A stretch of 64,000 nucleotides of DNA from a virus. Its lineage: Duplodnaviria > Heunggongvirae > Uroviricota > Caudoviricetes. How positions within the stretch are numbered: the stretch's first letter is position 1; each line of letters opens with the position of its first letter. The position numbers and the translations under genes are program-made. Location of the stretch: the IMG/VR virus record IMGVR_UViG_3300034072_002212, positions 30,417 to 94,416 of that record. One strand, given 5' to 3'. Positions 1 to 44,147 of the stretch are shown here, piece by piece. A model generated the notes under the pieces. It did no database searches, was not told where the DNA came from, and was given only the letters and a program-made list of their open reading frames with translations.

Positions 1-292
1 GGAGACTGGAGCCCTTGGCTCCAAACTTCACTCCTGGAACTTGCGGATGGCTAATGTTTACGGTCCAGGTCTGGTCATCTTCTGCCTTGATCCCAAAGAC
101 GCACCCATGTGACTTGAACTTACTCACAAGCTCATGAGCTGTCTTGGTATCAGTGGAATAAGGCGGAAGTGCGACAAACTTCTTGTTCTTCATGTCGCGA
201 AGTTGATAGGCGTCGGTCTCGGTATCATGGATAACCACAACACCGAGAACCTTACGCGCTATTTCAGCATCCAGATCAGGACCAGGACGCAT
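1..292 (-). CDS. Hypothetical protein, N-terminal ~97 aa only; gene continues past the window start
   Basis: Minus-strand ORF with ATG at 292-290 overlapping the S21 stop (TAATG). Translation MRPGPDLDAEIARKVLGVVVIHDTETDAYQLRDMKNKKFVALPPYST... No recognisable motif. Confidence 0.35.
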   Translation of the reverse strand, partial: MRPGPDLDAEIARKVLGVVVIHDTETDAYQLRDMKNKKFVALPPYSTDTKTAHELVSKFKSHGCVFGIKAEDDQTWTVNISHPQVPGVKFGAKGSSL

Positions 293-555
293 TAGGCCGG
301 CTGACGGCGCAATGCCTTCTTCTGGCGACGAATCGCCTCCTGACGCTTCTTGCGACGAATCTGCCCCTTGGTCTCAACATACTCCTTGCGGCGCATATCG
401 CGGATAAGGCCTTCCTGCACCGCACGACGCTTCAGCGTCCTCATCGCAGAATCCAGATTCTTCAGAGCCTGCTCGGGAGTATGAGCTGGCTTGACTTCGA
501 CCGCAAGACCACGCTTGTGGATGTCGCGACCGTTGCCATTGTAGTGCTGTCCCAC
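292..555 (-). CDS. rpsU: Ribosomal protein S21-like
   Basis: The ORF has no ATG/GTG near the conserved S21 core other than the GTG at 555, and its first codon at 615 is TTG. The segment ...LAVEVKPAHTPEQALKNLDSAMRTLKRRAVQEGLIRDMRRKEYVETKGQIRRKKRQEA... aligns to the bacterial S21 pattern (ALRRFKR..K.G.L.E.RRRE.YEKP..RKR). The likely start is GTG at 555-553, preceded by AGGAGA 7 nt upstream. Confidence 0.6.
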   Translation of the reverse strand: MGQHYNGNGRDIHKRGLAVEVKPAHTPEQALKNLDSAMRTLKRRAVQEGLIRDMRRKEYVETKGQIRRKKRQEAIRRQKKALRRQPA

Positions 556-3424: not shown

Positions 3425-3755
3425 AGAACCTCAGGCTCCATACTTTGATTTGGAACGAGGATTGCGAAGCTTGCGACCTAGCATCCTGCTGCTCGCCACC
3501 CCCTCGTGTCGTGCTGCGATATCAAGCTACGAAAAACACCAACGCCTTACAAGCGAAATTGTTGCTTGGTGTAAGATTTTTTGCGCCTTTATGTCTCCAG
3601 TTTCTGTGGATAACTGGCTTCGACCGCTGAAATCACAGGCTTTTTGACAAAGACAGGTGTTTAGAAATCTTTGAAAACGGTCGTTTCAGGACGCTAAGAA
3701 CGTCAAAGACAGGAGACCCTCACGCAACATTATGTTACATGAGGGTCAGCTTGCT

Positions 3756-4286
3756 TTAGCCTTGAGATGGCTTCTTAGGCGCCGGTGTGATAATCGTGAA
3801 CAACTGGCGTTCACTGCGGGCTACCGGACGCTCGAACTTGAACTCACCCACTTCTCTGAGAAAGTCCTGCATCACGGATGCGCCAACGTCCAAGTGGCTG
3901 ATTTCACGGCCCTTGAACTTGATGATCACCTTGACCTTGTTGCCTTCTTCCAGGAACCCCTGGGCGCGCTTGGCCTTGACTTTCAGGTCATTACTGTCTG
4001 TGGTCGGTCGCAGCTGGATCTCTTTGAGTTCCACGCGGTTTTCGCGATTCTTCTTCGCGTTCTCACGTTCCTTGCGACTCTGATCATACTTGAACTTGCC
4101 ATAGTCCAGGATCTTGCAGATCGGAATACCGTTGCTGATGTTGATCGCGACGAGGTCAAGTCCGGCCTCACGCGCACGGCGCTTGGCTTCGAGAGTTGGA
4201 ATAACACCTAGCTGCTCACCGGTGTCGGCAATGAGACGAACCTCCCTCGCTCGGATTTGGTCGTTCACCGCGTAGTTAGAATTCAC
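3756..4286 (-). CDS. infC: Translation initiation factor IF-3
   Basis: GTG start. IRAREVRLIADTGEQLGVIPTLEAKRRAREAGLDLVAI...ICKILDYGKFKY...VELKEIQLRP matches IF-3 N- and C-domain signatures over the full 176 aa. Confidence 0.85.
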   Translation of the reverse strand: MNSNYAVNDQIRAREVRLIADTGEQLGVIPTLEAKRRAREAGLDLVAINISNGIPICKILDYGKFKYDQSRKERENAKKNRENRVELKEIQLRPTTDSNDLKVKAKRAQGFLEEGNKVKVIIKFKGREISHLDVGASVMQDFLREVGEFKFERPVARSERQLFTIITPAPKKPSQG

Positions 4287-4311
4287 AGACAGTCTTTCCT
4301 TTCAAATATAC

Positions 4312-4338
4312 GAGGGAGCCTATACGTCAGGCTCCCTC
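4312..4338 (-). terminator. Hairpin terminator between clpX and infC
   Basis: GAGGGAGCC-(9 nt)-GGCTCCCTC; on the minus strand it is followed by GUAUAUUUG. Confidence 0.45.
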
Positions 4339-4345
4339 GGGTCAA

Positions 4346-5602
4346 TTACTCATTCACCGCCTTGGGGTCAAAAACGACCAGCGGCTCACTCTTTCCTTCG
4401 ATGACATCCTTGGTCACACGTACGGTAGTCGCTCCCTGCTCCTTGAGGTCAGGAAGTTCATACTGGACCTTGATCAGACGCTTCTCAATCACGCTGCGGA
4501 GACCGCGGGCGCCTGTCTTACGGGTGATGGCATCCTTGGCAACTGCGCGAAGAGCTTCTTCGTCAAACTCCAGTGTGACGTTCTCCATCTGGAACATCTT
4601 CTGGAACTGCTTGACGAGGCTGTTCTTGGGCTCGGTGAGAACCGTAACCAGCTGAGTTTCGTCGAGTTCTTCCAAGTGCGTGATGACCGGGAGACGACCA
4701 ACCAGCTCAGGAATCAGACCGAACTTGGTGAGATCTTCAGGCTCAACAGTGGCAAGAAGCTTGCTGTTGTCCTTCTTCTCAGCTTCGCTCATCACACTGG
4801 CACCAAAGCCCATGCTGCCCTTGCCCTTGTTCTGACGCTTTGCGATGATCTCGTCCAGACCAACGAATGCGCCACCAACAATGAACAGGATGTTCTTGGT
4901 ATTGACCACAGCCATCTCCGCGTTGGGATGCTTGCGGTTACCAGTGACTGGGACGCGGACTTCGCTACCCTCAATGATCTTCAGCAGAGCCTGCTGAACA
5001 CCTTCACCCGAGACGTCACGGGAAATGCTCGCCGAGTCGCCGCGCTTGGCCTTCTTATCTACCTCGTCGAGGTAGATGATACCACGCTCTGCCTTGGCAA
5101 CATCATTGTCGCAGACCTGCAGGAGGCGCGTGATGATGGTCTCCACGTCATCGCCCACATAACCCGCCTCAGTGAGGCTCGTAGCGTCAGCGATGGTGAA
5201 GGGAACGTCCAGCAGCTTTGCGATGCTGCGGGCCATCAGGGTCTTACCGGAGCCCGTAGGGCCCAGCAGGAGGATGTTGGACTTCTCGAGCTCAACATCA
5301 TCGACAACCGGATTGGCGAGACGCTTATAGTGATTGTGGACGGCCACACTCATGACCATCTTGGCTGCGTCCTGACCAATAACATACTGATCCAGGAACT
5401 CACGAATCTGTCGTGGGCTGGGAATACCACCATCCTTGAGAGACATCTTGGTCTCTGCGTTGGTGTCTTCCTTGAGAATGTCCGCGCAAAGCTGGACGCA
5501 ATCGTTACAGATGAAAACATCTGGACCGGCGATCAATTTCTGGACTGCTTCCTGTGGCTTTCCGCAGAAGCTGCAGGTCAGATTTTTCTTCTTGTCACTC
5601 AT
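4346..5602 (-). CDS. clpX: ATP-dependent Clp protease ATP-binding subunit ClpX
   Basis: N-terminal C4 zinc finger (CSFCGK...CNDCV), Walker A GPTGSGKT and 418 aa length are all typical of ClpX. Confidence 0.9.
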
Positions 5603-5635
5603 TTACTCGACCTCAGAGTTCTCGGATACATCCGA

Positions 5636-5642
5636 TATTTAG
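5636..5642 (-). promoter_or_regulatory. T4-like late-promoter-like motif (CTAAATAT on the minus strand) ~30 nt upstream of the clpX start
   Basis: Minus strand reads CACCCACTAAATATCGG...GAGGTCGAGTAAATG. The same CTAAATA core recurs upstream of at least 8 other minus-strand genes. Confidence 0.4.
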
Positions 5643-5715: not shown

Positions 5716-7167
5716 TTAAAGTCCTGGGCGCGCATTCTGCATTGCGATTGCCACCTGAACGATGTCGTTGACGATATCTGGGTTCATTTCAAGAACTTCA
5801 ATGATCATCTCCTTGGGGGAACGTGGATCGTCATCCTGTGGTTTGGGCTCTGGCTTCCAAGCGTTGATAGCTTCCTGTTGCTGCTTCAACTGCTCTTCCC
5901 ACTGACCAAGAAGTTCGCGTTCGTCGTTCAGTCGGGCTTCCATGGTGAGAAGCTGACTATGGGCCTGTTCAAGAGCCTCACGGTCCTCCGCATTTTGCGT
6001 CCTCTGAGCTTCAACGTCCTGCAGTTCTGCCTCAATCTCACTGGCAATTTCAGCACGGATCGTATCACGGTCTAGCTTGGACTCTTCCTCACCAATGAGG
6101 TTCAGACTCTCCTGGTGGTCTTCAAGCAAGTTGATGCCTTCACCCTCGCCCTCGATGATCGTGACGCCAGTGTCATCACTGATGAAACGAGCAGCGCGAT
6201 CCTCTTCGGGTGCGATACTTGCGCCTTCGCCCTCAATAGGAGTCATCTCGTCCAAGACGGCATCAGCTGGCTTCTCAGAGAATAGGTGCTCAGCGTAGGC
6301 GGCTTCCTTTTCCTTGATATCCTCTTGTTCCATGAGCTTACGCACATGGTCAACCCATTCGGGCTTCATTGTGTCAAAGACGTTCTGAGGGATATTGTCG
6401 CCAGTGACCAGCGGCTCCTCAGCCTTGCGCTTACGAGCCTCCTGGTAATCCTTGAGCGAGATGCTGCCAGCGATGAACAAGCTAAGAGCAAGCGGGTCGA
6501 AGGCGATCATGATGATCACGATGATGATGCGAACTGCGGACTCAGGATCCCAGCCAAACAATTCCGCGACATACTTGACCGGACCCAGCTTGGCCTCGAC
6601 TTCAGCACCCTGCGTCTTCAGCGGCACCAGCTTGGTGTTTAGGTCATTGATCGCCTTATTATTCTCGTCAATACGAGCCTGAATTGCCGCAGCTTCACGC
6701 CTCTGGGAATTAGCTGCGCGGAGGCCCTGACGACCGGAAGTCTCGAGACTCTTGTCCGTGATCCTGCTGATCTGGTCCATGCGCTTCATCAGCTGGTCAT
6801 TCTCGGCTTGCTTCTGCTTTAGCTGGGTCTCCAACTGAGCACTCTGGATCTCAAGACCGGCCTTTGGTGCCGCCTGCTCAAGGTGTCCCTTGCTCAGATA
6901 GCCATAAATGCCAAGACTCGTGATTGTCATGAGGGCTGCGATGAACACGCAGAAGAGCCCGCGGAAATACCACGGTGCGCGAGGATTGCGCCAGTTGCTA
7001 TGAACCCACTTGGTGGCTACGATCTTGCCAACTTCAAGAGTGCCAGCCATGATGACCACACCCCAGAAGGTAGCAGCGAACAACGCACCCATACCAGCCA
7101 AGGAGAACCAAGCGGCAACCGTGCTGATTGCCGCTGCGACAAAGAATATGAAGATGATGAATGCCAT
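5716..7167 (-). CDS. Membrane protein with N-terminal TM helices, long coiled coil and acidic C-terminal region (483 aa)
   Basis: N-terminal hydrophobic segments (MAFIIFIFFVAAAISTVAAWFSLAGMGALFAATFWGVVIMAG), a second TM region mid-protein, Q/E/K-rich heptad-like stretches, then a D/E-rich tail. Confidence 0.5.
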   Translation of the reverse strand: MAFIIFIFFVAAAISTVAAWFSLAGMGALFAATFWGVVIMAGTLEVGKIVATKWVHSNWRNPRAPWYFRGLFCVFIAALMTITSLGIYGYLSKGHLEQAAPKAGLEIQSAQLETQLKQKQAENDQLMKRMDQISRITDKSLETSGRQGLRAANSQRREAAAIQARIDENNKAINDLNTKLVPLKTQGAEVEAKLGPVKYVAELFGWDPESAVRIIIVIIMIAFDPLALSLFIAGSISLKDYQEARKRKAEEPLVTGDNIPQNVFDTMKPEWVDHVRKLMEQEDIKEKEAAYAEHLFSEKPADAVLDEMTPIEGEGASIAPEEDRAARFISDDTGVTIIEGEGEGINLLEDHQESLNLIGEEESKLDRDTIRAEIASEIEAELQDVEAQRTQNAEDREALEQAHSQLLTMEARLNDERELLGQWEEQLKQQQEAINAWKPEPKPQDDDPRSPKEMIIEVLEMNPDIVNDIVQVAIAMQNARPGL

Positions 7168-7245: not shown

Positions 7246-7668
7246 TTAGGCGAAGAGTGCCTTCAGCTTCTGCCAGAAGGTCAGCTTGGGAGCCGGGGTG
7301 AGGTCCGTCAGCCCATTGTAGCGGTCCAGGAACTTGTAGGAGATGTTCTTGGCACCGAAGGCCTTCAGCTTCTCGAATGCCATCTCTGGATCGAGGTCGC
7401 TGCAGGTGTAGATGTCGAATTCGATGAAAGGCTGATCGCACTCATCCCAGGTGTGAAGCACCATGTGGGAGGTGGTGATCAGAACGTCGGCAGTCATACC
7501 GCGGTTGCCCTCTTGCTCGCAATAAGCCGCGCTGGCCTTGCGAAGGACTTCCATACCCATGCCGTGAACGATGTCAGTGAGCCACTGCTCGACAAATCGC
7601 TCATCCTTCTTCAGGGGAGGATTGTCGACAGCGGCGTGAACAATTAGGTGCTTGTGAAGCTTTGCCAT
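7246..7668 (-). CDS. speH: Pyruvoyl-dependent S-adenosylmethionine decarboxylase (SpeH / class 1 AdoMetDC)
   Basis: HLIVHAA...ADVLITTSHMVLHTWDECDQPFIEFDIYTCSD-LDPEMAFEKLKAFGA aligns with the SpeH self-cleavage region (ESHLTIHTWPE...DLFTCGD..DP..AF). Confidence 0.65.
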   Translation of the reverse strand: MAKLHKHLIVHAAVDNPPLKKDERFVEQWLTDIVHGMGMEVLRKASAAYCEQEGNRGMTADVLITTSHMVLHTWDECDQPFIEFDIYTCSDLDPEMAFEKLKAFGAKNISYKFLDRYNGLTDLTPAPKLTFWQKLKALFA

Positions 7669-8308: not shown

Positions 8309-10180
8309 ATGTCCAACAAGATTAAGAAACTCACAGATTATCAGCACGCCAGGCTCCGAACTGAGATGTACCTGGGTAGCCGTGCTCCACACACTCAGAC
8401 GATTCTCCAGATTGTGGATGGAAAGCCACAGCCGGTTGAGATGACATGGGTGCCAGCTCTCTACACGGCCTTTCGTGAGGTGCTCGACAACGCCCTCGAC
8501 GAGGTTATCGGCCATGGACATGGCAGCAAGATTAAGGTAACCTACGACGCAACGACACGCGAAATGAGCGTTGAAGACGACGGTCGTGGTATTCCTATCG
8601 CGTATGACGACGCTCATAAGATGCACCTCGCTACACTCGTTATGACAGAGGCACGAGCTGGTCGTAACTTCGAGGATCGCGGTGAGGTCGCAGGCACTAA
8701 CGGTATCGGTGCGAGCGTTGTGAACTTCTGCTCCGAGTATTTCAAGCTGGACATTCAGAAGGATGGTGAGCGTTTCCAGCAAGAGTTCACGCAGGGCAAC
8801 GCGGTCTTTGGTGATGAGCTACAGTTTGGCAAGGTCAAGCTGACCAAGAAGCAGGGACCCAACGGCACCAAGGTCACGTTCAAGCTTTCCAGCGAAGTCT
8901 TCCCAGATCTCAATCTCCCAGAAGAGTTCATTCGCTCGCGTGTCACTGAGGTGGCAATCTGTAATCCGCTGATCAAGATCTTCTACAACGGTGAGCAGAT
9001 CAAGGTGAAGCCTCGCCCAGAGCAGACTCTCTTCCCCGGTCAGAAGCCAATGGCCCTAGAGATCAAGGACGAGAACTTCCGTAGCCGCTTCTGGATTGTT
9101 CCCAACTGGACCACAGGTGGCGATCACGTCCACACCATTGTGAATAACATTCCTGCTTTCAACGGCGGCGTTCACATCGACACTTTCCGTCGCCTGTTCT
9201 ATGGTAACCTGCTGACTGCGCTGGAGAAGGAGAGCAAGCGTCGCAAGCTCAGCCCGAACCGCTCGGACGTCACTGAGGGTGTTCTGATCTACAACATCAC
9301 GAACATGCACGGTCCTAACTTCGACAGCCAGAGTAAGACTCGACTGATTAACGAAGAAGTGGGCAAGATCCTCAAGAACGATCTCGAGAATCCAGAGCTC
9401 TACAAGGACTTCATCAAGAAGAATCGCGACTGGATTGAGGAAATCTACAAGCGTTGTGCTGAGCGCACGATGAAGAAGGATGCCGCTGACATTGCGAAGG
9501 CGGCCAAGAAGAACCTTCGCAACAAGGTTCCTCGCCTCATGGACGCAACTGGTGGTGATCGCAGCAAGTGCATTCTCTTCCTAGCAGAGGGTGAATCGGC
9601 CATCAGCGGCATGGGTTCGGTTCGTGATCCAGACCTCCACGGTGGTCTTGGCATGAAGGGTAAGGTTCTCAACGTCAACGGCGAAATGCCCAAGAAAGTC
9701 ATTGAGAACAAGGAGCTCGCAGACATCATGAATTGTCTGGGGCTTGTCATTGGTCAGAAGGCCAAGCTTGAGGACCTGCGCTATGGCAAGGTCTATATCG
9801 CGCACGACATGGACCCTGACGGTCTGAACATCGGTGCGCTCTTGATCAACTTCTTCCACACCTACTGGCCAGAGTTGTTCGAGAATCCCACCAAGCCATT
9901 CGTTCACATTTTCCGCACTCCGTTCATCATCGCTGAGCGTGGCAAGTCCAGAAAGTACTGGTATGCCCATAACTATGGTGAATTCAAGCCGGAGGATTAC
10001 AGCGGCTGGACGATTACCCGCGCTAAGGGTCTGGGTACGCTGACTCGTGAAGACTGGGAATATTCGCTTGCGAACCCTGAGGTCTATCCGGTTATCGACG
10101 ATGGTAAGATGGGTGAGACTCTCGACTTGATCTTCAACAGCAAGCGTTCTGATGACCGCAAGGAATGGATTGGTCTATGA
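8309..10180 (+). CDS. DNA topoisomerase II large subunit (T4 gp39/gp60 fused type; GyrB-like ATPase + TOPRIM)
   Basis: GHKL ATPase motifs (EVLDNALDE, TNGIGASVVN), TOPRIM LFLAEGESA, 623 aa. Confidence 0.85.
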   Translation: MSNKIKKLTDYQHARLRTEMYLGSRAPHTQTILQIVDGKPQPVEMTWVPALYTAFREVLDNALDEVIGHGHGSKIKVTYDATTREMSVEDDGRGIPIAYDDAHKMHLATLVMTEARAGRNFEDRGEVAGTNGIGASVVNFCSEYFKLDIQKDGERFQQEFTQGNAVFGDELQFGKVKLTKKQGPNGTKVTFKLSSEVFPDLNLPEEFIRSRVTEVAICNPLIKIFYNGEQIKVKPRPEQTLFPGQKPMALEIKDENFRSRFWIVPNWTTGGDHVHTIVNNIPAFNGGVHIDTFRRLFYGNLLTALEKESKRRKLSPNRSDVTEGVLIYNITNMHGPNFDSQSKTRLINEEVGKILKNDLENPELYKDFIKKNRDWIEEIYKRCAERTMKKDAADIAKAAKKNLRNKVPRLMDATGGDRSKCILFLAEGESAISGMGSVRDPDLHGGLGMKGKVLNVNGEMPKKVIENKELADIMNCLGLVIGQKAKLEDLRYGKVYIAHDMDPDGLNIGALLINFFHTYWPELFENPTKPFVHIFRTPFIIAERGKSRKYWYAHNYGEFKPEDYSGWTITRAKGLGTLTREDWEYSLANPEVYPVIDDGKMGETLDLIFNSKRSDDRKEWIGL

Positions 10181-13641: not shown

Positions 13642-14994
13642 ATGACCCAAGAAAATAGCTCAAACTATATCCTAGACACTTCCCGCGAATATTCCATCTA
13701 CGTTTGTGAATCCCGCGCAATTCCCAAGGTCGCAGACGGCCTCAAGGACGCGCAGCGCAAGGCGCTTTGGCTTGTTAAGAGCCGATCGGACAAGATCAAG
13801 ACGGTGTCCCTCGCAGGCGAGATGATCTCCTCGGGACTCTATCTGCACGGTGACCAGTCAGCAGCTGGTGCTATCTCGATGCTGGCCGCTCCCTACGTCA
13901 ACAACGTGCCCTTGCTTGAGGGTATTGGTTCGTTCGGCACGCGCGTTGCGCCAGTCGACGGTATCGGTGCTCCTCGTTACACCTACGTCAAGCGCGGCAA
14001 AGCTGCTCAGGAACTCATGTTCCCCGACATGGACATTGTTCCGGTCAAGGAGAACTATGACGGGTCAACGATTGAGCCTCAGCACTTCCTCCCACTTATC
14101 CCTACGGTGCTCTTAAACGGCGTCTCAGGCATCGCAGTGGGTTGGAGCACCGAGATCCTACCTAGGTCCTTCAAGGCCCTCGTTGATGCCACGCTGAACG
14201 TCCTAGACGGCAAAAAGCTGAAGCGCATTGCTCCCAACTACGAGCTCTACAACGTGGGCGTCAGCCACCTCGAGGACAACTCGTGGGAGTTTCAGGGCAA
14301 GCTGGAAATCGTCGACACGTCGACCATTAAGATCACTGAGCTGCCACCCGAACTGACCCTCGAGAAGTTCAAGGAACGCCTGAACACGTTTGAAGACGAG
14401 AACAAGATCTCGACCTATATCGACCGTTCCACTGATACCATTGACATCACGATCAAGATGGCTCGTGGCTCGGTCAAGGGTTGGAGCGTCACTCGCGCCA
14501 TCGACTACTTCAAGCTCAAGCAGAAGAAGACCGAGCGCATCGTTGTCATCGACTGGAACGGCTCTTCGATCCGCCAGTATGAGAGCGCAGAGAAGCTTAT
14601 TGAGGACTTCGTTGCGTGGCGCTTGGGTTGGTATGAGACCCGCTACCAGAACAAGGTCAACAAGGACGACTACGAGCTAGGCTTCTGGAAGGGCGTCAAG
14701 CTTTGCTTCGACGACAAGCTGCCAGCACGCCTGGGCACAATCAAGAGTCGCACTGAACTGGATGCTGATGTCCAGGCTGTCACTGCCAAGCTCAAGCTGG
14801 ACGACAAGCGCGTTGATCGCATCGTGAACTTGCCGGCTCACCGTTGGACCAAGGATGCCTATGCTGATGTTCTCCAGAAGATCAAGGATCTGGAAGCAAA
14901 CATCAAGGAATACAAGGCCATCCTCAAGGATCCTGAAAGGCGAAAGGCCATCTACCGGGAAGAGGTAGAGGCCTTGAAGAAGGTTAAGTTCTAA
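13642..14994 (+). CDS. DNA topoisomerase II medium subunit (T4 gp52-like, GyrA-like breakage-reunion domain)
   Basis: IPKVADGLKDAQRKALW (compare IPDVRDGLKPVQRRILY), active-site tyrosine context APRYTYV, 450 aa. Confidence 0.85.
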   Translation: MTQENSSNYILDTSREYSIYVCESRAIPKVADGLKDAQRKALWLVKSRSDKIKTVSLAGEMISSGLYLHGDQSAAGAISMLAAPYVNNVPLLEGIGSFGTRVAPVDGIGAPRYTYVKRGKAAQELMFPDMDIVPVKENYDGSTIEPQHFLPLIPTVLLNGVSGIAVGWSTEILPRSFKALVDATLNVLDGKKLKRIAPNYELYNVGVSHLEDNSWEFQGKLEIVDTSTIKITELPPELTLEKFKERLNTFEDENKISTYIDRSTDTIDITIKMARGSVKGWSVTRAIDYFKLKQKKTERIVVIDWNGSSIRQYESAEKLIEDFVAWRLGWYETRYQNKVNKDDYELGFWKGVKLCFDDKLPARLGTIKSRTELDADVQAVTAKLKLDDKRVDRIVNLPAHRWTKDAYADVLQKIKDLEANIKEYKAILKDPERRKAIYREEVEALKKVKF

Positions 14995-20581: not shown

Positions 20582-20865
20582 GCAAAGGTCAGCTTGAACA
20601 GAGCCGCAAGGTCTGCGCGATCCTTGGGAAAGAAGAACGTTGTGATGTCCGGCTCGTCTGAACTGTTGCTCGACAACACAGTGAGACCGTGGCGCTTGTA
20701 GAAGTCCTCAATCTCGGGACCTGCGACCCACTGGAAAGTGTCCTCCCCAGTGGATCGCTTCGTGAAGTGCGCCTTGCCCTTGATGTCTACACCCATGGAC
20801 TCAGCTTGCTTCTGTTTGATGCTCTCCCAGAGAGCTTCATAGGCCGAATGGCGAGGATCGGTCAT
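20578..20865 (-). CDS. FKLTWGG-family small protein
   Basis: W-box DTFQWVAGP. C-terminus FFPKDRADLAALFKLTFA. ATG overlaps the cca stop (TAATG). Confidence 0.5.
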   Translation of the reverse strand: MTDPRHSAYEALWESIKQKQAESMGVDIKGKAHFTKRSTGEDTFQWVAGPEIEDFYKRHGLTVLSSNSSDEPDITTFFFPKDRADLAALFKLTFA

Positions 20866-21998
20866 TACTCGATCTCCAGCAGTTCTTCCTTGGTCTTCGT
20901 GAAGCGCGAGAACACCCAGGCATTCTCCAGCTTACGCAGACGCTGCCCCATAGCCGGCCCCGGCTTCATCCCCGAAGCCAGCAGGTCCTTCCCCGTTACC
21001 GGGAACGTCGGGACCACAAAGTTGCGGGCGTATTCAGCCAGCATCGGTTCCCCGGCGATCTCCAGCATGGACACGACATGATCCAGAGGGAACTTGTCGC
21101 GGGTCAGGTAGATCTCGACCTTCTCCTCGGTCCAGTTCACGCACCGGTTGCGGATCAGGTTGCGGACCTTGGCCTCTTCGGCCGAGCTCAGCTTCCAGAA
21201 CTGGAAGAACTTTTCCTCGTCGGTACTGGCCACCAGCGTCGACAGTGCCGCGACCGCATCATCCGAACGCGCCAGCTCAACAGGGTTGAACCGGAAGACT
21301 CCCAGCGAACGGTTGACGCGCGTCTTGAACATCGCGTCGACCACCCGAACCCGAGCCGGCATCGAGGGATCCAGCAGCTTTGACATTTCCAGCCAGAACC
21401 GCTCGACCGACACGACGTTCAGCTTGTCCAGGGTCTCGCCCACGCTGAACAGGTCCAGCGTGTCGTCGTCCATGGTCGCATCGAAGCGCGCCGCAAAGCG
21501 GAAGTAGCGCAGGATACGCAGGTAGTCCTCCTGGATTCGCAGCTCTGCGATCCCGACGAAACGGACGACCTTGTTCTTCAGGTCATCGCGTCCGCCAAAG
21601 TAATCGTAGACGTTGCCCTCGAAGTCCATCGACATTGCGTTGATGGTCAGGTCGCGCCGCTCTGCGTCCAGCTCGAAGGAGCGGGTGAACTCCACGGTCG
21701 CATGACGCCCGTCGGTCTCTGCGTCGATCCGCAGCGTGGTGACCTCGAACGGCTCCTTGTTGACCACGATGGTCGCCGTGCCGTGTGCGATGCCGGTTTC
21801 GATGAAGCCGAACTTGTTGGCCGTTGCGATCTCGCGCATCTCTTCCGGCGTTGCGTCGGTGCAGAAGTCCACGTCCTTGGGGACCACGCCCAGGATCGCG
21901 TCACGGACACAGCCACCCACGAAGCGGATCTCGAAGCCGGCGGCCTTGAAGGCATCGCCCAGCTTGCGCGTTTCCGTGGTCATCAGCTTGTCCAGCAC
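20865..21998 (-). CDS. cca: tRNA nucleotidyltransferase (CCA-adding enzyme) / poly(A) polymerase family
   Basis: Head-domain motifs GGCVRDAILG...DVDF and 377 aa length. Confidence 0.8.
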   Translation of the reverse strand: MLDKLMTTETRKLGDAFKAAGFEIRFVGGCVRDAILGVVPKDVDFCTDATPEEMREIATANKFGFIETGIAHGTATIVVNKEPFEVTTLRIDAETDGRHATVEFTRSFELDAERRDLTINAMSMDFEGNVYDYFGGRDDLKNKVVRFVGIAELRIQEDYLRILRYFRFAARFDATMDDDTLDLFSVGETLDKLNVVSVERFWLEMSKLLDPSMPARVRVVDAMFKTRVNRSLGVFRFNPVELARSDDAVAALSTLVASTDEEKFFQFWKLSSAEEAKVRNLIRNRCVNWTEEKVEIYLTRDKFPLDHVVSMLEIAGEPMLAEYARNFVVPTFPVTGKDLLASGMKPGPAMGQRLRKLENAWVFSRFTKTKEELLEIE

Positions 21999-27582: not shown

Positions 27583-27590
27583 CTATTTAG
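27583..27590 (-). promoter_or_regulatory. Late-promoter-like CTAAATAG motif
   Basis: 22 nt upstream of the ribosome-binding site of gene 27151..27555. Confidence 0.4.
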
Positions 27591-31129: not shown

Positions 31130-32869
31130 TTATTCAGCGTCGGGATGAATCCCTGCCAGCCGCTGAAGTTCCTCACGCTCGTCGGCCGGGAGAGGCTCGT
31201 CGCGCACCCGGCGGGGCTTGGGGGCCGGAACCGCCTTGGCCACCGGCGCATCACCGTTGCCGGTGATCGGAGCCGAAAGACCATCGACCACACCCGACAT
31301 GCCCTTGCTCAGGTCAATGCCAAGTTCCTTGGCCAGCTCGTCCACGAAGGGAGCCTGGAGCCGGTAGCCCAGCAGAGCGTCAGTCATCTGGCCGGGCAGA
31401 CCGTTACCGCCGTTTCCCGAGGTCTCGCCCTCCTCACCGCCGAAGGTGCGACCGCCACCGATGCCGCCGTTCATGTGAACAACGCGGAAGCTGTCAATCT
31501 TCTCGATGGGCTTGCCCATCTGCTCGAGGATCTCAGGCAGCTTGTCGATGAGCTTGAGGCGGATCTGCAGCGCAGCCTGCTCAGGGCTCATGAGGTTCGC
31601 AGCTTCGTTCAGCGCCCGCTGACCCTCGGCCTCAACCTCGTAACGACGTGCGTCTGCCTCGACTAGGCGCTCCTTGGCCTTGGCGCTGGCGTCAGCTGCC
31701 GCGAGCTCAGCTTCCGCACGGATGCGGATACCAGCGGCCTCTTCCTGTGCCTTGGTCTCGGCCGCGATGACCGCAACCTTCTGGTCACGCTGGGCGCGCG
31801 CTTCGGCCTCAACGGTCTTCACCGCTTCAGCAGCCGCGACCGCAGTCGCGCGGGCTTCGTCAGCCTTGGCACGAGCAGTCGACTCTTCCTCGGACTTCTG
31901 GGCGACCGCAATGCGCGATGCCTGTGCCGCAATCTCGAGAGCCTGTGCGGCCTCGGTCTCTGCGACCTGAATCCGGCGCTTCTGCTCGACACGCGCTGCC
32001 TCGGTGGCCTGGTTGGCCTCGATTTCAGCGATGTCAGCTTCGCGAGTGCGCTCAGCGCGGATCTTCGCAAGACTAGCAGCCTGCTCGGCGCGCTGGGTCT
32101 CGACCTGACGCTCCTGCTCCAGGGTTGCGAATTCGTCCTGCTGCTTGATTTCGAGCGAACGCTTGTTCGCCTCGAAGTTCTTCTGCTCGATGGCGACGCG
32201 GTTGTCGGCCTCGATTTCGTTGCGCTCCTTGCGGCGGGTCTCGGTCACGCTCGTGAGCTTAGCCAGACCTTCAGCGTCGAACGCATTGTTGGGGTTGAAG
32301 TGCTCGACCGACGTCTGGTCCAGACCGGTCAGCGAGACCGATTCCAGTTCCAGACCGTTCTTCTTCAGGTCTTCAGCCGCTGTGGTCTGGACCTGCTTCA
32401 CGAAGTCGGCCCGCTTCTCATGAAGGTCCTGCATGTCCATGCCCGCCGCAACAGCGCGCAGAACGTCGACGAACTTGCCTTCAATCAGCTCAGCGAGCTG
32501 CTGGGGGTTGGTCGTCCGCTTACCCAGGGTCTGCGCCGCTGCCGCGATGCTTTCCAGATCCGGCGACACACGAACGTAGAACTCAGCCTTCACGTCAACG
32601 CGCAGGCGGTCCTTGGTGATCAGCGAGTCCTTGGCCTTGCGATCGACGGTGAGGCGCAGGGTCTGCATATTGATGTCCACAGTCTCGTGGAACACCGGCA
32701 GAATCAGAGCACCGCCGTCCTTGACGACCTTCTGACCGCCCATACCCGTGCGGACGAATGCCATTTCCTTGGACGCTCGCTTATAAAGCTGCGTCATGAA
32801 GAAGACAATCACACCAAGGACGACAACCGCCCCCAGGATGATCGCCCCAATAAAGGTGAGATTATCCAA
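31130..32869 (-). CDS. Flotillin / band-7 (SPFH) protein, YqiK-like
   Basis: N-terminal TM, SPFH core (ILPVFHETVDINMQTLRLTVD...) and a very long A/E/K/R coiled coil. 579 aa. Confidence 0.75.
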   Translation of the reverse strand: MDNLTFIGAIILGAVVVLGVIVFFMTQLYKRASKEMAFVRTGMGGQKVVKDGGALILPVFHETVDINMQTLRLTVDRKAKDSLITKDRLRVDVKAEFYVRVSPDLESIAAAAQTLGKRTTNPQQLAELIEGKFVDVLRAVAAGMDMQDLHEKRADFVKQVQTTAAEDLKKNGLELESVSLTGLDQTSVEHFNPNNAFDAEGLAKLTSVTETRRKERNEIEADNRVAIEQKNFEANKRSLEIKQQDEFATLEQERQVETQRAEQAASLAKIRAERTREADIAEIEANQATEAARVEQKRRIQVAETEAAQALEIAAQASRIAVAQKSEEESTARAKADEARATAVAAAEAVKTVEAEARAQRDQKVAVIAAETKAQEEAAGIRIRAEAELAAADASAKAKERLVEADARRYEVEAEGQRALNEAANLMSPEQAALQIRLKLIDKLPEILEQMGKPIEKIDSFRVVHMNGGIGGGRTFGGEEGETSGNGGNGLPGQMTDALLGYRLQAPFVDELAKELGIDLSKGMSGVVDGLSAPITGNGDAPVAKAVPAPKPRRVRDEPLPADEREELQRLAGIHPDAE

Positions 32870-32891
32870 CTACTTTCTCCTGGTGATCTGT

Positions 32892-33551
32892 TTAGATCTT
32901 GCGAACGATGAATGCGTAAGCGCGTTCTCGGTGTGGACCGATTAGCACCACCTGTGAACCATTTGCAATACTTTCTTCTCCCTCCCCACAAACCATTACT
33001 GTGTGATCGGTTCCATGCGCGTCAGTAAAGCGCGCCATGCCAAAGTCCTCGCGGGCAATTGGACCAACAGTCACAACGCCGGCAGAACCCGTGAGACTCT
33101 CGAGGCTAACGGCATTCGACTCATCCTTGGGAAGGACGGGAGCGAGCCCCAGAGAACACAAACGAACGGTTGGAAGGGTGAGAGCGAGCACGATGGGCGC
33201 ACCAAAGAGCGCAGGCGCTAGGGAGCCCGTCAGTCCATCATAGATCCACTGAGCACTGTAGCCCAGGAGAGCAAAGCTGCCGCAGAATAGCGTGAGGAAG
33301 ATTGTGCTGGGCACATGGCCGGGATTGGCCCAACCGATGATACCAGCATGGCCGATTTCCAGATGATCTGGAATGCCGTTGCCGTTGAGGTCTAGGCTAA
33401 AATCAGCATGGCCATGGAGGGCATCAAAGCCAGCGCCCAGCGCCATTCCAATGATGCCGAAGAGGAGAAGGGCGAGAACCACACATCCTGAAATTAGGTA
33501 TGGGAGGTTGGGCCCGGCTGTAAGGAAATCCATGAGGCTCATAAGCCCCAC
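32892..33551 (-). CDS. NfeD/YqiJ-like membrane protein, partner of the flotillin gene
   Basis: Multiple TM helices plus a C-terminal OB-fold-like segment (GSAGVVTVGPIAR...ARFTDAHGTDHTVMV...GSQVVLIG). Lies immediately upstream of the flotillin gene. Confidence 0.55.
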   Translation of the reverse strand: MGLMSLMDFLTAGPNLPYLISGCVVLALLLFGIIGMALGAGFDALHGHADFSLDLNGNGIPDHLEIGHAGIIGWANPGHVPSTIFLTLFCGSFALLGYSAQWIYDGLTGSLAPALFGAPIVLALTLPTVRLCSLGLAPVLPKDESNAVSLESLTGSAGVVTVGPIAREDFGMARFTDAHGTDHTVMVCGEGEESIANGSQVVLIGPHRERAYAFIVRKI

Positions 33552-35676: not shown

Positions 35677-37428
35677 CTAGCCATTCTTGGATGCGAGTTC
35701 GTTCACAACCATGTGATTGAGGTCAGAGATCCTGTAGGGCTTGCCTAGCACCTTGATCTTATGACTGCGGTCTCGCTTGAGCTCCCTAAGGGCCACTTCA
35801 GCATGACCTGTGGTGAAGATCACGGGTAAATCCGGACGGATATTGCTGGCAGCTTTGGCAAGCTGGAAACCATCAATGCCATTGGGCATCACAACGTCGG
35901 TGAACAATAGGTCAATGGGAATGTCGAGATTCTGAATGATCTCCAGTGCGCTTTTGCCATCTTGTGCGCTCAGGACATTGTAGCCCATTTCCATCAAAGC
36001 CTGCGCTGCGAGCTCTCTGACGCCGGGCTCGTCATCTACCACAAGAATGCTGGCCTTGGTAGCGTCGTAGTTGAAGTCTTCCTCGTCCCGCGTTTCTTCG
36101 ACCGTTTCTCCGGCTGTGTAGGGGAAGAGCATCTCTACGGTTGTTCCCTTGCCCAACACGCTGTCAATGAAGACCTTGCCGTTGCTCTGCTGACAGAAGC
36201 CATAGACCATGGAGAGACCAAGCCCACTACCCTTGCCCACGTCCTTGGTCGTGTAGAATGGTTCAAAGGCCCGTTCTTTGGTTTCCTGAGTCATGCCTTC
36301 GCCAGTATCACTGACGCTGACACTCACAAAGCGCGTGTCGTCAATGGAACGGTTTTGTGTCTTAATACAGATCCGACCACCATTGGGCATTGCGTCTCTG
36401 GCGTTGATGCCAAGGTTGAGAATAGCACTCTCGAGCTGTGATTTGTCGCTCAAGCAAAGCCAGACGTCTTCCTGGAGATCAATCTCAACAGGAATACTAA
36501 CACCGACCGCCCGCTGGACCATTTCCTGGACGCCAACGACGACCTCGTTGACGTTCAGTCGCTCGGGATGGAGTCGCGATTTACGAGAGAACGCAAGCAA
36601 TTGGCTCGTGAGCTTTTCTGCCTTGAGGGCGGCCTCGATCGCCATGGAAGTCTGACGTTCAATACGCTTTGCCACGGAGTTGTCTGGCAAGTTGGCCAGA
36701 CTCATCTTCGAGAGCTCGAGGTTCCCGATGATCACTGTGAGCATGTTGTTGAAATCGTGCGCGATACCACCGGTCAACTGCCCAACGCTCTCCATCTTTT
36801 GTGCCTGGCGGAGAGCATCCTGTGTTTTCTGCCGCTCTTCAATCTCTTGAAGGAGGCGCTCATTTGCTTCCTCGAGCTCTTGAGTGCGTTCGCGGACTTT
36901 GGTCTCTAGCAGTTCGTGAGCGTGGATAGATTCTTCCTGAGCCATTTTGAGCTCATGAATTATTGAAGCAACACCCAGCCATTTTACGAGGTTTTCGTTA
37001 TCATCCTTGATGGCTCGAGTGGTTGCACGGAACCAGCGATATTCTCCGTCATGTCGACGAATGCGAAACTCGGCTTCGTATGCTAACCCCTTGACATAAT
37101 GCTCTTCCATTGCCAGACGAATTACTGCTATATCGTCGGGATGAATGCATGTCTTCCAAAGATAATCATCATCAAGGGAGTATTTTACTCCCGTGAATTC
37201 AAACCAAAAATTATTGAGATAGGTGAGATTTCCCTGATCGTCTCGGGTCCAGATAATTGTCGGCGCAAGATCTGTGAGCATCTTGATATTGATGTCAGAT
37301 TTGATCGCCTTATCCACAAAACCCTCATCGCCCACTCCGCAGACAAGAAGACCTTGGGGTAATGGCCTACCTCCGGTCTGTCGCTTTGGCATCGAGAACC
37401 CCTTTAGAAGCGTAACGAATAGAACCAA
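35677..37428 (-). CDS. Hybrid sensor histidine kinase (PAS – HisKA – HATPase – receiver)
   Basis: H-box IAHDFNNMLTVI; ATPase DTGEGM...GSGLGLSMV; C-terminal receiver ILVVDDEP...DLLFTDVVMP. Uses a TAG stop. Confidence 0.8.
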   Translation of the reverse strand: MVLFVTLLKGFSMPKRQTGGRPLPQGLLVCGVGDEGFVDKAIKSDINIKMLTDLAPTIIWTRDDQGNLTYLNNFWFEFTGVKYSLDDDYLWKTCIHPDDIAVIRLAMEEHYVKGLAYEAEFRIRRHDGEYRWFRATTRAIKDDNENLVKWLGVASIIHELKMAQEESIHAHELLETKVRERTQELEEANERLLQEIEERQKTQDALRQAQKMESVGQLTGGIAHDFNNMLTVIIGNLELSKMSLANLPDNSVAKRIERQTSMAIEAALKAEKLTSQLLAFSRKSRLHPERLNVNEVVVGVQEMVQRAVGVSIPVEIDLQEDVWLCLSDKSQLESAILNLGINARDAMPNGGRICIKTQNRSIDDTRFVSVSVSDTGEGMTQETKERAFEPFYTTKDVGKGSGLGLSMVYGFCQQSNGKVFIDSVLGKGTTVEMLFPYTAGETVEETRDEEDFNYDATKASILVVDDEPGVRELAAQALMEMGYNVLSAQDGKSALEIIQNLDIPIDLLFTDVVMPNGIDGFQLAKAASNIRPDLPVIFTTGHAEVALRELKRDRSHKIKVLGKPYRISDLNHMVVNELASKNG

Positions 37429-37564: not shown

Positions 37565-37768
37565 TAAAGAAAGCTAAAAGGCCCGTCCTGTTCCGCGGTG
37601 GAGCCCATACCGGTTTGGCAAACCCTAAGGGTTAAGCCGCAACTGCCATTGCTGGCTCGTTGTCGTTGACATTTCTGTCGTTGGCCTTTTCGGATCCGAA
37701 GATCCCAGGGAACCACCCCTCGTTGTCTCTCGCAGCCGTTCGCGCACACGTCGATCCTGGTTCGGCCC
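37565..37768 (-). ncRNA. ssrA: tmRNA coding piece (5' acceptor strand, tag reading frame, post-stop helix)
   Basis: 5' end GGGGCCGAACCAGGAUCGACG at 37768. Resume codon GCC at 37684-37682. Tag stop UAA at 37633-37631, followed by the AACCC-UUA-GGGUU hairpin. Confidence 0.6.
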
Positions 37769-37815
37769 CTTGCTTCAGGATTGCTCCCGATAAGGTTTCC
37801 AGTATTGCCACCTGG

Positions 37816-37880
37816 TTGGTGGAGCCGGCGGGTACTGCCCCCGCGTCCGCTGATTGCTATTGAGCTTTGGTCATCAACAA
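37816..37880 (-). ncRNA. ssrA: tmRNA acceptor piece (T-arm + 3' acceptor strand + CCA)
   Basis: The 3' end ...GCGGG-GGCAGUA-CCCGC-CGGCUCC-A-CCA lies at 37816. The last 12 nt (CCGGCUCCACCA) match the E. coli tmRNA 3' terminus. Confidence 0.6.
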
Positions 37881-37887
37881 CCCCGCC

Positions 37888-37916
37888 TTTATAGCGCGCT
37901 CGTAACCAAATGTCAA
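37888..37916 (-). promoter_or_regulatory. Sigma70-like promoter TTGACA-N17-TATAAA(GG) driving the tmRNA locus
   Basis: -35 at 37916-37911 and -10 at 37893-37888 on the minus strand, immediately after the PAAR stop codon. Confidence 0.5.
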
Positions 37917-37919
37917 CAG

Positions 37920-38195
37920 CTATCCTACAAAAACGTCGCTGCTGCCTTGTGCAACCTTGCTACCACAGGCCACGGGGTCAGATAACCTGCCCTGTCCGCG
38001 TCCATTGACGAAGACTGTGGATGATCCCCTAGCCAAAACACTTGGATGACCACTATGTGGTGCCCATTTATCGCCTTGCCTGTGAGCCGGCTTGCCGTTG
38101 ATAAAGACGTCAGGGCTTCCCTGAACGTTTGGACGTGGAGGAGCGCCGGGATGGCCCGTGCATTTGTCTCCCATACGGGCCGCTGGCTTACCCAC
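37920..38195 (-). CDS. PAAR-repeat protein (spike-tip, T4 gp5.4-like)
   Basis: N-terminus (M)GKPAARMGDKC...HPG...VFINGKPAHRQGD...VFVNG are PAAR repeats. GTG start overlaps the upstream stop. Confidence 0.75.
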   Translation of the reverse strand: MGKPAARMGDKCTGHPGAPPRPNVQGSPDVFINGKPAHRQGDKWAPHSGHPSVLARGSSTVFVNGRGQGRLSDPVACGSKVAQGSSDVFVG

Positions 38196-44056: not shown

Positions 44057-44087
44057 GTTTTTCCTTGTTCTCTTTATCGTAGGGCAG

Positions 44088-44095
44088 ATATTTAG
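44088..44095 (-). promoter_or_regulatory. Late-promoter-like CTAAATAT motif upstream of nrdA
   Basis: Minus strand reads GGACTCACTAAATATCTGCC...AAGGAAAAACATG. Confidence 0.4.
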
Positions 44096-44147
44096 TGAGT
44101 CCAATTTGGCATTCTCCAGGGCGTTAGAAGGCCCTGGTAGGTGCTAA

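Follow-up and report, generated by a model that had tools for sequence, protein, structure and literature searches.

We analyzed two adjacent genes on a 64,000-nt stretch of phage DNA, referred to here as the window. ORF calling placed clpX, which codes for a 418-aa protein from an ATG start, next to infC, which codes for a 176-aa protein from a GTG start. Both genes are on the minus strand, so clpX comes first in transcription and is followed by a 59-nt spacer and then infC. An earlier, sequence-only reading had described IF-3 as followed by ClpX, an order that holds in plus-strand coordinates but is reversed in transcription. The features discussed here are:

295..555, minus strand: gene for ribosomal protein S21, co-oriented with infC and 3.2 kb beyond it in the downstream direction
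3715..3747, minus strand: terminator-like hairpin of 15 pairs, then TCCTGTCTTT, directly after the infC stop codon
3756..4286, minus strand: infC, complete IF-3 (TIGR00168, match to E. coli IF3, conserved start)
4294..4302, minus strand: AAAGGAAAG, Shine-Dalgarno-like element ahead of the infC GTG (gaaagga kept in relatives)
4311..4339, minus strand: hairpin CGAGGGAGCC-loop-GGCTCCCTCG, then TATATTTG; 12 pairs, 8 of them G-C
4319..4324, minus strand: TATAGG, candidate -10-like hexamer, 15 nt after TTGACC
4340..4345, minus strand: TTGACC, candidate sigma-70-type -35 box for infC, directly after the clpX stop codon
4346..5602, minus strand: clpX, AAA+ unfoldase (NF003745, match to E. coli ClpX, motif alignment)
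5635..5642, minus strand: CTAAATAT, T4-late-type promoter-like motif (recurrence, enrichment, conservation)
37577..37920, minus strand: permuted two-piece tmRNA of the alphaproteobacterial type (Rfam covariance models)

The neighbors of infC in the window are clpX and hypothetical genes. Topoisomerase II genes that are divergent from clpX lie close upstream of it in every relative, and in the subclade of the window a 183-aa ORF, an AdoMet decarboxylase gene and a gene for a 483-aa membrane protein lie between clpX and the topoisomerase gene. When 50,697 phage records were searched with the locus by megablast, none matched, and relatives were seen at the protein level only. The gene order matches that of isolated jumbo phages and of 416-465 kb IMG/VR contigs, and this synteny supports a phage origin of the window. 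The source is a jumbo phage that has Agrobacterium phage Atu_ph07 and Sinorhizobium phage Phosso among its relatives, and its clpX-infC block belongs to alphaproteobacteria-infecting jumbo phages of ~420-490 kb, namely the Atu_ph07/Phosso/AP-J-162 group and its metagenomic relatives. The claim of the sequence-only reading that a phage encodes full-length, canonical IF-3 and ClpX is borne out by the ORFs, by this synteny and by the equivalog scores given below.

In all, 14 members of the clade carry clpX and infC in tandem with a spacer of 57-66 nt: Phosso, Atu_ph07, nine distinct contigs from IMG/VR and three from ENA/Logan. Their ClpX identities range from 55 to 100%. Other huge-phage IF-3 loci (L018-L024) have no ClpX within 6 kb. 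The tandem is specific to the Atu_ph07-related clade, in which clpP is unlinked; in Bacillus phage G, by contrast, clpP lies directly upstream of clpX. For both genes, dN/dS was 0.05-0.14 against close relatives (amino acid identity of at least 75%) and ~0.2 against the more distant Phosso, values that are rough because dS is saturated (1 or more). As judged from these ratios, clpX and infC are both under purifying selection.

By profile and motif comparison, the phage ClpX is intact, full length and canonical. It scored 608.6 bits against the NCBIfam equivalog NF003745 (cut-off 359), 572 bits against TIGR00382 over residues 1-412 (cut-off 370.75) and 505 bits against E. coli ClpX (PDB 8e91). 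Its Pfam domains are zf-C4_ClpX (1e-18), AAA_2 (2e-31) and ClpB_D2-small. The four cysteines of the N-terminal C4 zinc finger (CSFC...CNDC) are kept in all relatives. The motifs that define ClpX membership are also present, namely Walker A (GPTGSGKT), Walker B, the pore-1 GYVG, the pore-2 loop and the sensor-2 Arg (GARGLR), and in the alignment all of the ClpX motifs are kept in the window and in 10-12 relatives. A search for close relatives in 185,579 species-representative genomes returned just ordinary bacterial ClpX at no more than 58% identity.

Two loops bear on the function of the protein. The RKH loop, which E. coli ClpX requires to degrade ssrA substrates (PMC7112951), is intact in the window (GNRKHPNA) and across the tmRNA-bearing subclade; Phosso and Atu_ph07 have RKN instead. 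The ClpP-docking loop, whose absence the sequence-only reading had named as a refuting condition, is present as MGFGASV. It has the right length and keeps the equivalents of F270 and V274, but its tripeptide is MGF rather than the IGF found in most relatives, including the nearest. The neutrality of this change is not guaranteed, since an I268L substitution leaves E. coli ClpX severely defective in ClpP binding (PMC7112951). Of 13 genomes, 12 keep the (I/M)GF...V loop, a sign that ClpX works with ClpP; the divergent loop, FGFTGHP, is that of Atu_ph07. Searching the 64-kb window by tblastn with E. coli ClpP, SspB and SmpB queries found none of the three (the ClpP query was 100% identical to an E. 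coli fragment). Atu_ph07 and Phosso each encode a ClpP orthologue with 64% identity to E. coli ClpP. An IMG/VR scan for ClpP gave at least 600 matches, and the closest relatives, of ~460 kb, were not among the 80 matches listed.

The phage IF-3 scored 173 bits against the infC equivalog TIGR00168 (cut-off 60) and 125 bits against E. coli IF3 (PDB 8jsg). Its IF3_N (PF05198, 1e-27) and IF3_C (PF00707, 2e-25) domains are joined by a Lys/Arg-rich linker, SRKERENAKKNRENR. In E. coli numbering, R25, Q33, Y75, R99, D106, R133, E134, H137 and R168 are kept, Lys replaces R66, R112, R129 and R131, and Gly occupies the position of R116. From E. coli mutagenesis, we take R99, R112, R116, R131, R133, R168, Y75 and D106 to be the residues that face the 30S subunit or tRNA. 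Judged by this alignment, the phage IF-3 keeps both domains and most of the 30S-binding residues. An IF-3 search returned ~68 phage-clade clusters at 49-100% identity, many of them on 315-480 kb contigs, followed by bacterial IF-3 proteins at no more than 51% identity, the named ones being non-alphaproteobacterial. In these comparisons a clear gap divides the phage IF-3 clade from its bacterial counterparts.

Conservation backs the GTG start proposed for infC. At the homologous position, 11 of 13 relatives have GTG and 2 have TTG, with L011, the 13th, ambiguous. In the window, an in-frame TGA precedes the GTG by 18 nt. No AUU, AUA or AUC start was found ahead of the conserved domain of the window infC, and across the clade the start is GTG or TTG, never of the AUU type. 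In E. coli, the AUU start codon of infC serves autoregulation. Phage infC thus shows neither the AUU-type start nor the thrS-infC-rpmI-rplT operon, which are gene-level traits of bacterial loci and not criteria for the IF-3 family.

The sequence upstream of clpX resembles a T4-type late promoter, whose hallmarks are a -10 element like TATAAATA that lacks a -35 box and recurs upstream of genes, and gp55/gp33 homologues in the genome. CTAAATAT sits 33 nt upstream of the clpX ATG. The window contains four exact copies of it, where 0.35 would be expected; all four are on the minus strand, and every one precedes a start codon by 10-40 nt. Among upstream 6-mers, TAAATA shows the strongest enrichment (12 against 1.4 expected, p 4e-8), and it precedes clpX in 13 of 13 genomes examined. 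The (C)TAAATA(T) motif is therefore recurrent, strand-specific and conserved in the clade, and Phosso carries the exact T4 TATAAATA. CTAAATA serves as the late promoter in Aeh1, a T4-like phage (PMC1524935), and among the genes of Atu_ph07 is one for a gp55-like late sigma factor (PMC6102473). A TAAATA-type motif also precedes the gene for the ribonucleotide reductase large subunit (nrdA), which makes late timing uncertain. The late-type motif that had been proposed upstream of clpX is thus real as a conserved element, and the word late describes what it looks like in sequence.

The clpX-infC spacer suggests that infC may have its own sigma-70-type promoter. TTGAC is found at the matching position in 10 of the 12 genomes with a long spacer, and a k-mer count showed GTTGAC and TTGACA to be enriched upstream of genes. 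In relatives, TATAGG, TATAGA, TATATT, TAATCT or TGTAGT follows TTGAC by 15-17 nt. A consensus sigma-70 scan of the window called no promoter in the spacer, owing to the 15-nt spacing and a -10 box that does not end in T, and the proposed infC promoter is accordingly drawn entirely from cross-genome conservation and k-mer enrichment. The spacer also has a predicted fold of -23.8 kcal/mol. In 8 of 13 relatives, strong hairpins of differing sequence are found at the corresponding position, and one compensatory change, A:T to T:A, distinguishes the window from L237. This hairpin is a candidate terminator or attenuator of the clpX transcript, or it may serve in RNA processing or in forming an RNA 3' end. 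Some relatives, namely Atu_ph07, L006, L010 and L008, lack the hairpin and TTGAC or have weak versions of them. Downstream of infC, the window hairpin has a predicted energy of -32.9 kcal/mol, and the corresponding folds in relatives range from -13 to -33 kcal/mol. These downstream folds are clearest where the long stem begins within ~20 nt of the stop codon.

The candidate tmRNA of the sequence-only reading proved genuine. It scored 84.3 bits against Rfam alpha_tmRNA (RF01849, gathering 50) and 84.7 bits against tmRNA_permuted (RF04321, gathering 47), and its in-frame tag, VNDNEPAMAVAA, ends ...AMAVAA. ARAGORN had reported no tmRNA in the window, a false negative given the Rfam result. The gene is ~33 kb from clpX and is preceded by TTGACA-N17-TATAAA. 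A blastn search with the tmRNA against phages gave just 32-nt matches, in Erythrobacter phages. A generic alpha-tmRNA pattern matched at least 119 mostly small IMG/VR contigs, with none in the jumbo clade among the matches listed. Through the neighboring histidine-kinase gene, the tmRNA was found in three relatives with tags that end LAA, and two of these share a contig with clpX-infC. The S21 of the window is 99% identical to that of L238, whose product carries Pfam Ribosomal_S21.

We compared the locus with known systems. In Atu_ph07, gp2 (ClpX, AUZ94814) and gp1 (IF-3, AUZ94813) form the same tandem in the same orientation with a 59-nt spacer, divergent topoisomerase II genes lie upstream and TAAATA stands ahead of clpX; the genome also encodes ClpP, as well as the gp55-like factor (PMC6102473). 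Atu_ph07 is 55% (ClpX) and 43% (IF-3) identical to the window and has a G+C content of 37% against ~54%. It differs in the docking loop and in having RKN for RKH, its spacer contains neither TTGAC nor a hairpin, and no tmRNA is annotated (PMC11242549). Phosso (CDS 520/521) and AP-J-162 (clpX adjoining IF-3 gp547) share the tandem, a spacer with TTGACA and a hairpin, the GTG start of infC, S21 a few kb downstream and a ClpP gene elsewhere in the genome. AP-J-162 also has a tmRNA, and the adjacency of its clpX, IF-3 and topoisomerase genes has been remarked upon (PMC11242549). These two phages are 64% (ClpX) and 50% (IF-3) identical to the window. They differ from it in having the exact T4 TATAAATA for CTAAATAT, RKN for RKH, and two small ORFs between clpX and topoisomerase where the window subclade has three larger genes. 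E. coli ClpX and IF-3 (8e91 and 8jsg) have the full domain architecture and the catalytic and recognition motifs in common with the phage proteins; unlike in E. coli, the phage genes stand in tandem, infC starts with GTG for AUU, IGF is changed to MGF and R116 to G.

We favor, at a probability of about 0.6, a model in which the clpX-infC block is a conserved unit that encodes a ClpP-docked ClpX and a supplementary IF-3, kept adjacent by inheritance rather than strict co-expression. The ClpX hexamer would dock through its (I/M)GF loops on ClpP, which the isolated relatives encode themselves and which would come from the host in other cases, and would degrade or remodel chosen proteins. Its candidate substrates include chains tagged by the phage tmRNA, whose tag ends in a ClpX-type degron, VAA or LAA. 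The phage IF-3 would bind the host 30S subunit and supplement or replace host IF-3. Because infC begins with GTG instead of an AUU-type codon, the route of bacterial infC autorepression, phage IF-3 synthesis should escape feedback. Surplus IF-3 should in turn repress the infC of the host and make start-codon selection stricter. Acting alongside the phage S21, whose gene is 3 kb downstream, it would bias initiation during infection. In this model clpX would be expressed from the T4-late-type TAAATA promoter and followed by a hairpin, and infC would be transcribed from a separate sigma-70-type promoter within the spacer, with a terminator hairpin at its end.

A functional link among ClpX, IF-3 and the tmRNA is for now an inference. 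In the coupled model of the sequence-only reading, the three would make up one system that rewires initiation and rescue, with ClpX dedicated to degrading proteins that carry the ...AMAVAA tag. Their co-occurrence in the window genome and on two or more contigs of relatives, tags that end in the VAA or LAA of the ClpX C-terminal degron class, the intact RKH loop of the tmRNA-bearing subclade and the nearby S21 are all consistent with such coupling. However, the tmRNA is 33 kb away behind a promoter of a different, sigma-70 type, the promoter types of clpX and infC also appear to differ, with a hairpin between the genes, and host ClpXP would recognize such a tag anyway. SmpB and SspB were not found in the window by tblastn, and nothing ties IF-3 mechanistically to ClpX. 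Atu_ph07 has the tandem and no annotated tmRNA (PMC11242549, Table 1), a weak point because that annotation used ARAGORN, which missed the window tmRNA too. We regard full coupling as unlikely.

ClpX could instead be a remodeling chaperone for phage DNA replication or virion assembly, possibly acting without ClpP, with the adjacency of infC incidental. ClpX remodels lambda O and Mu transposase. The constant proximity of clpX to the divergent topoisomerase II genes fits a replication role, and this interpretation was given for Atu_ph07 (PMC6102473) and AP-J-162 (PMC11242549); participation in assembly or translocation has been put forward as well (PMC7824862). The divergent docking loop of Atu_ph07 points the same way, but the (I/M)GF...V form is kept in the other 12 genomes. 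The invariant immediate neighbor of clpX is infC, not a replication gene, and in the window subclade the topoisomerase gene is set apart from clpX by three genes of unrelated function. A chaperone role of this kind seems unlikely to us.

A third model, which we judge quite improbable, is a takeover by IF-3 through host infC feedback and 30S complexes containing S21, accompanied by a late-switched quality-control arm of ClpX, ClpP and the tmRNA degron. On that reading, the sigma-70-type promoter of the phage IF-3 would be early and its synthesis exempt from autorepression, and host infC, with its AUU-type start, would be shut off.

Bacterial clpX and infC sit in separate operons (tig-clpP-clpX-lon and thrS-infC-rpmI-rplT). 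Another reading, that the two genes were recently captured from a host or are assembly contamination and do nothing specific to the phage, draws on the near-universality of both genes in bacteria and on several 'phage' records with ClpX or IF-3 matches that are evidently bacterial fragments, but it is effectively refuted by those separate operons, by retention of the tandem in isolated phages and 416-480 kb viral contigs, by an IF-3 clade at most 51% identical to any bacterial IF-3 found, by the lack of a close ClpX relative in the species-representative genomes and by dN/dS far below 1.

Huge-phage genomes are widely listed as carrying initiation factors, S21, tmRNA and Clp components. Genes for IF1, IF3, S21, S1, tmRNA and SmpB are a common theme among them (Al-Shayeb et al. 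2020), and their initiation factors, S21 and tmRNA have been proposed to intercept host translation (PMC7162821). The idea of rewired initiation and rescue put forward in the sequence-only reading is this generic hypothesis, already published (PMC7162821, PMC7824862, PMC11242549), and the clpX-infC adjacency is likewise not new, having been annotated or remarked on in two papers (PMC6102473, PMC11242549). What appears new is the clade-wide TAAATA upstream of clpX, the spacer with its TTGAC, -10-like box and hairpin, and the GTG or TTG start of infC. Specific predictions for the block are separate promoters for the two genes, escape of the GTG-initiated infC from autoregulation, a cognate ClpP and a tag that ends in VAA or LAA. 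Because two members of the clade, Atu_ph07 (host Agrobacterium C58) and Phosso (host Sinorhizobium), are isolated and culturable, these ideas are experimentally testable.

Two minus-strand ORFs exactly fill the interval 3756..5602, where the sequence-only reading had placed genes for IF-3 and ClpX side by side. clpX comes first in the order of transcription and is separated from infC by a spacer of 59 nt.

Features of the window (coordinates, strand where assigned, description)
295..555, minus strand, ribosomal protein S21 gene, 3.2 kb downstream of infC on the same strand
3715..3747, terminator-like hairpin after infC
3756..4286, minus strand, infC, 176 aa, GTG start
4311..4339, spacer hairpin of 12 bp, overlapping the candidate infC promoter region
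4346..5602, minus strand, clpX, 418 aa, ATG start
7246..7668, minus strand, AdoMet decarboxylase gene (speD-like)
8309..10180, topoisomerase large subunit gene
13642..14994, topoisomerase subunit A gene
20865..21998, minus strand, CCA-adding tRNA nucleotidyltransferase gene

The clpX product matches the Pfam domains ClpX C4 zinc finger, AAA_2 and ClpB_D2-small, and the infC product matches IF3_N and IF3_C. ClpX scored 608.6 bits against the NCBI equivalog NF003745 (cut-off 359), and IF-3 scored 173 bits against TIGR00168 (infC; cut-off 60). The top solved structures were E. coli ClpX (505 bits) and E. coli IF-3 (125 bits). Equivalog scores so far beyond their cut-offs, together with the structure matches, exclude chance resemblance and bear out the adjacent pair on a phage.

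We found no nucleotide-level match to the locus in 50,697 phage records. The best protein-level matches were two isolated Rhizobiales jumbo phages, Sinorhizobium phage Phosso (469 kb; ClpX 64% and IF-3 50% identical) and Agrobacterium phage Atu_ph07 (490 kb; 55% and 43%). Both carry infC directly after clpX with divergent topoisomerase II genes upstream, and the window is laid out alike. Nearer relatives came from IMG/VR, as contigs of 416-465 kb whose ClpX is 83-88% identical, and from ENA/Logan, where one contig has 480,938 bp. The exact window ClpX has a single public copy, on an identical 5.9-kb Logan contig (SRR10854512), and no close relative turned up when species-representative bacterial genomes were scanned. 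Jumbo-phage-like genes in the window encode a ribonucleotide reductase, a DnaB-like helicase, the CCA-adding enzyme, an Mtd_N tail-fibre protein and the AdoMet decarboxylase.

By tblastn of fetched loci, infC follows clpX across a spacer of 57-66 nt in both Phosso and Atu_ph07, in L004-L010 (seven IMG/VR contigs) and in the Logan/ENA loci L003, L237 and L238. Loci L011-L013 have the same tandem with a shorter spacer. No ClpX was found within 6 kb of IF-3 in huge phages of other lineages (loci L018-L024). On these comparisons the tandem is a hallmark of the clade around Atu_ph07, Phosso and AP-J-162. Its adjacency is already published, and the expression signals described below are the new part. 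ClpX of Atu_ph07 (gp2) was reported to adjoin topoisomerases, along with six more Clp-family proteins including ClpP gp676 (PMC6102473). In AP-J-162, clpX lies directly beside IF-3 (gp547) and a topoisomerase, and a tmRNA and S21 were also reported (PMC11242549). Both IF3 (AUZ94813) and ClpX (AUZ94814) from these phages are noted by Iyer et al. (PMC7824862). In the window's subclade, the gene immediately upstream of clpX always encodes a 483-aa protein (5716..7167, minus strand) with a hydrophobic N-terminus, a long charged coiled-coil-like region and no Pfam match; its N-terminal ~85 residues are kept even in the distant L011-L013 (52%).

The ClpX sequence keeps all four zinc-finger cysteines and the AAA+ motifs: Walker A (GPTGSGKT), the second Walker motif, pore-1 (GYVG), pore-2 and sensor-2 (GARGLR). 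The ClpP-docking loop, whose absence would have argued against the sequence-only reading, is present as MGFGASV. The docking tripeptide is IGF in 10 of 12 relatives checked, including the closest (92% identity), and FGF in Atu_ph07; the Ile-to-Met change is private to the window phage among these 12. Its neutrality should not be assumed, because even I268L severely weakens ClpP binding by E. coli ClpX (PMC7112951). No ClpP was found within the 64-kb window; both Atu_ph07 and Phosso encode, elsewhere in the genome, ClpP orthologues 64% identical to the E. coli protein. ClpX could instead be a replication or assembly chaperone, a rival that we rank below its probable action with ClpP.

IF-3 aligned identically with the E. 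coli protein at R25, Q33, Y75, R99, D106, R133, E134, H137 and R168, with Lys replacing R66, R112, R129 and R131 and Gly replacing R116. An IF-3 database search returned about 68 clusters at identities between 100% and ~49%, many on contigs of 315-480 kb. Bacterial IF-3s came next (at most 51%), and the named matches were non-alphaproteobacterial. By these comparisons the phage IF-3 looks like an old phage lineage and not a recent host capture. dN/dS for clpX and infC was 0.05-0.14 against close relatives and ~0.2 against the more distant Phosso, values that are rough since dS is at least 1. For one phage-type IF-3 entry (P0008), the longest contig is tabulated as 958,096 bp and the contig retrieved (L237) has 480,938 bp; the larger figure may reflect a two-copy concatemer assembly of a ~480 kb genome.

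In E. coli, the AUU start of infC is the basis of its self-repression. Among 13 relatives, 11 start infC with GTG and 2 with TTG (the start of L011 was not assigned). An in-frame TGA lies 18 nt upstream of the window's GTG, and no AUU, AUA or AUC start candidate was found ahead of the conserved IF-3 domain. Having no AUU-type start, phage infC should escape the autorepression loop. The S21 gene likewise lies downstream of infC in relatives, and the window S21 is 99% identical to that of L238. A Phage_ABA_S-like ORF (2..292) follows it at the window edge.

The proposed tmRNA proved genuine (37577..37920, minus strand). It was missed by ARAGORN and found by Rfam as the permuted, two-piece alphaproteobacterial type, which points to an alphaproteobacterial host. 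In three relatives a tmRNA likewise precedes a hybrid histidine-kinase gene, in the same position as in the window, and two of the three share a contig with clpX-infC. The resume codon is GTC (Val) in the window and GCA (Ala) in the relatives; the tags are VNDNEPAMAVAA in the window and ANDNTVVEARLAA and ANDNTVEVALAA in relatives. Huge-phage IF1, IF3, S21 and tmRNA genes have been proposed to intercept host translation (Al-Shayeb et al., PMC7162821), and the sequence-only reading suggested that the phage rewires both initiation and ribosome rescue. The tags end in VAA or LAA, endings that belong to the ClpX degron class. With the RKH loop of the window ClpX intact, recognition by the phage enzyme is plausible; host ClpXP would recognise such tags too. 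The components of that reading (genes, motif and tmRNA) hold up, but the tmRNA and clpX-infC loci are tied by co-occurrence alone, and a coupled initiation-and-rescue system is a rival that we likewise rank below the main explanation.

Directly downstream of the tmRNA, the window's hybrid sensor histidine kinase (PAS, HisKA, HATPase_c, receiver; 35677..37428, minus strand) is conserved in relatives at 64-67%. A separate 556-aa protein has several PAS domains (54370..56040, plus strand). Two-component signalling proteins are unusual on a phage. A flotillin/SPFH protein (Band_7 and Flot) beside a YqiJ/NfeD-like membrane protein (31130..33551, minus strand) forms a membrane-microdomain gene pair in a stretch of raised G+C (0.59-0.61 at 24-32 kb vs ~0.53 elsewhere). 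Phosso encodes glutathionylspermidine synthase and an ornithine/lysine decarboxylase, which, with the window's AdoMet decarboxylase, suggests polyamine metabolism as a clade theme.

The late-type motif noted upstream of clpX, CTAAATAT, is real: it has four exact matches in the window where 0.35 would be expected, and every one lies on the minus strand, 10-40 nt ahead of a start codon. Its TAAATA core is present in 21 copies, 20 of them on the minus strand, and 12 of the 21 are wholly intergenic (8% of the window is intergenic). Within the 100 nt preceding genes, no 6-mer is more enriched than TAAATA (12 vs 1.4 expected, p = 4e-8). It lies upstream of clpX in 13 of 13 genomes examined, 31-42 nt from the ATG in 12. 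In Phosso this element matches the T4 late consensus TATAAATA exactly. The T4-like phage Aeh1 uses CTAAATA as its late promoter (PMC1524935), and a gp55-like late sigma factor is encoded by Atu_ph07 (PMC6102473). As a description of sequence, "late-type" is thus fair; late timing is at most putative, and the same motif precedes the ribonucleotide reductase large-subunit gene. The mechanical start of that ORF (41729..44104, minus strand) is 44104, which puts CTAAATAT inside the first codons. A good RBS and ATG ~32 nt downstream of the motif indicate that the true start is probably near 44056.

TTGAC directly follows the clpX stop in 10 of 12 genomes with the long spacer, and a -10-like hexamer (TATAGG, TATAGA, TATATT, TAATCT or TGTAGT) lies 15-17 nt past it. 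GTTGAC, TTGACA and TAATCT are also enriched upstream of window genes, and the tmRNA promoter is a textbook TTGACA-N17-TATAAA. Judging from conservation, we propose a second, sigma-70-type promoter class that would give infC its own promoter in the spacer. The candidate was not picked up by a consensus scanner, as its spacing is 15 nt and its -10 box ends in a base other than T. A fold of -23.8 kcal/mol was computed for the spacer; 8 of 13 relatives have strong hairpins in the equivalent position, unrelated in sequence, and comparison with L237 revealed one compensatory A:T to T:A change. Most relatives have a comparable hairpin soon past the infC stop.

The best explanation of these sequence data is that clpX and infC form a conserved, functional block in a jumbo phage related to Atu_ph07. 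ClpX probably acts with ClpP; IF-3, aided by S21, probably adds to the host factor or takes its place, without being subject to autoregulation; and the two genes appear to be under separate control. Two promoter-like motif classes appear window-wide, for example at 27584, 44089, 45284, 51381, 54008, 59627 and 61258 (minus strand). One is (C)TAAATA(T), ~30 nt upstream of many starts (20/21 copies on the minus strand), and the other is (G)TTGAC(A) followed after N14-17 by TATAGA, TAGATC or TATAAA. Combined, both classes could yield a transcription map of the window phage.
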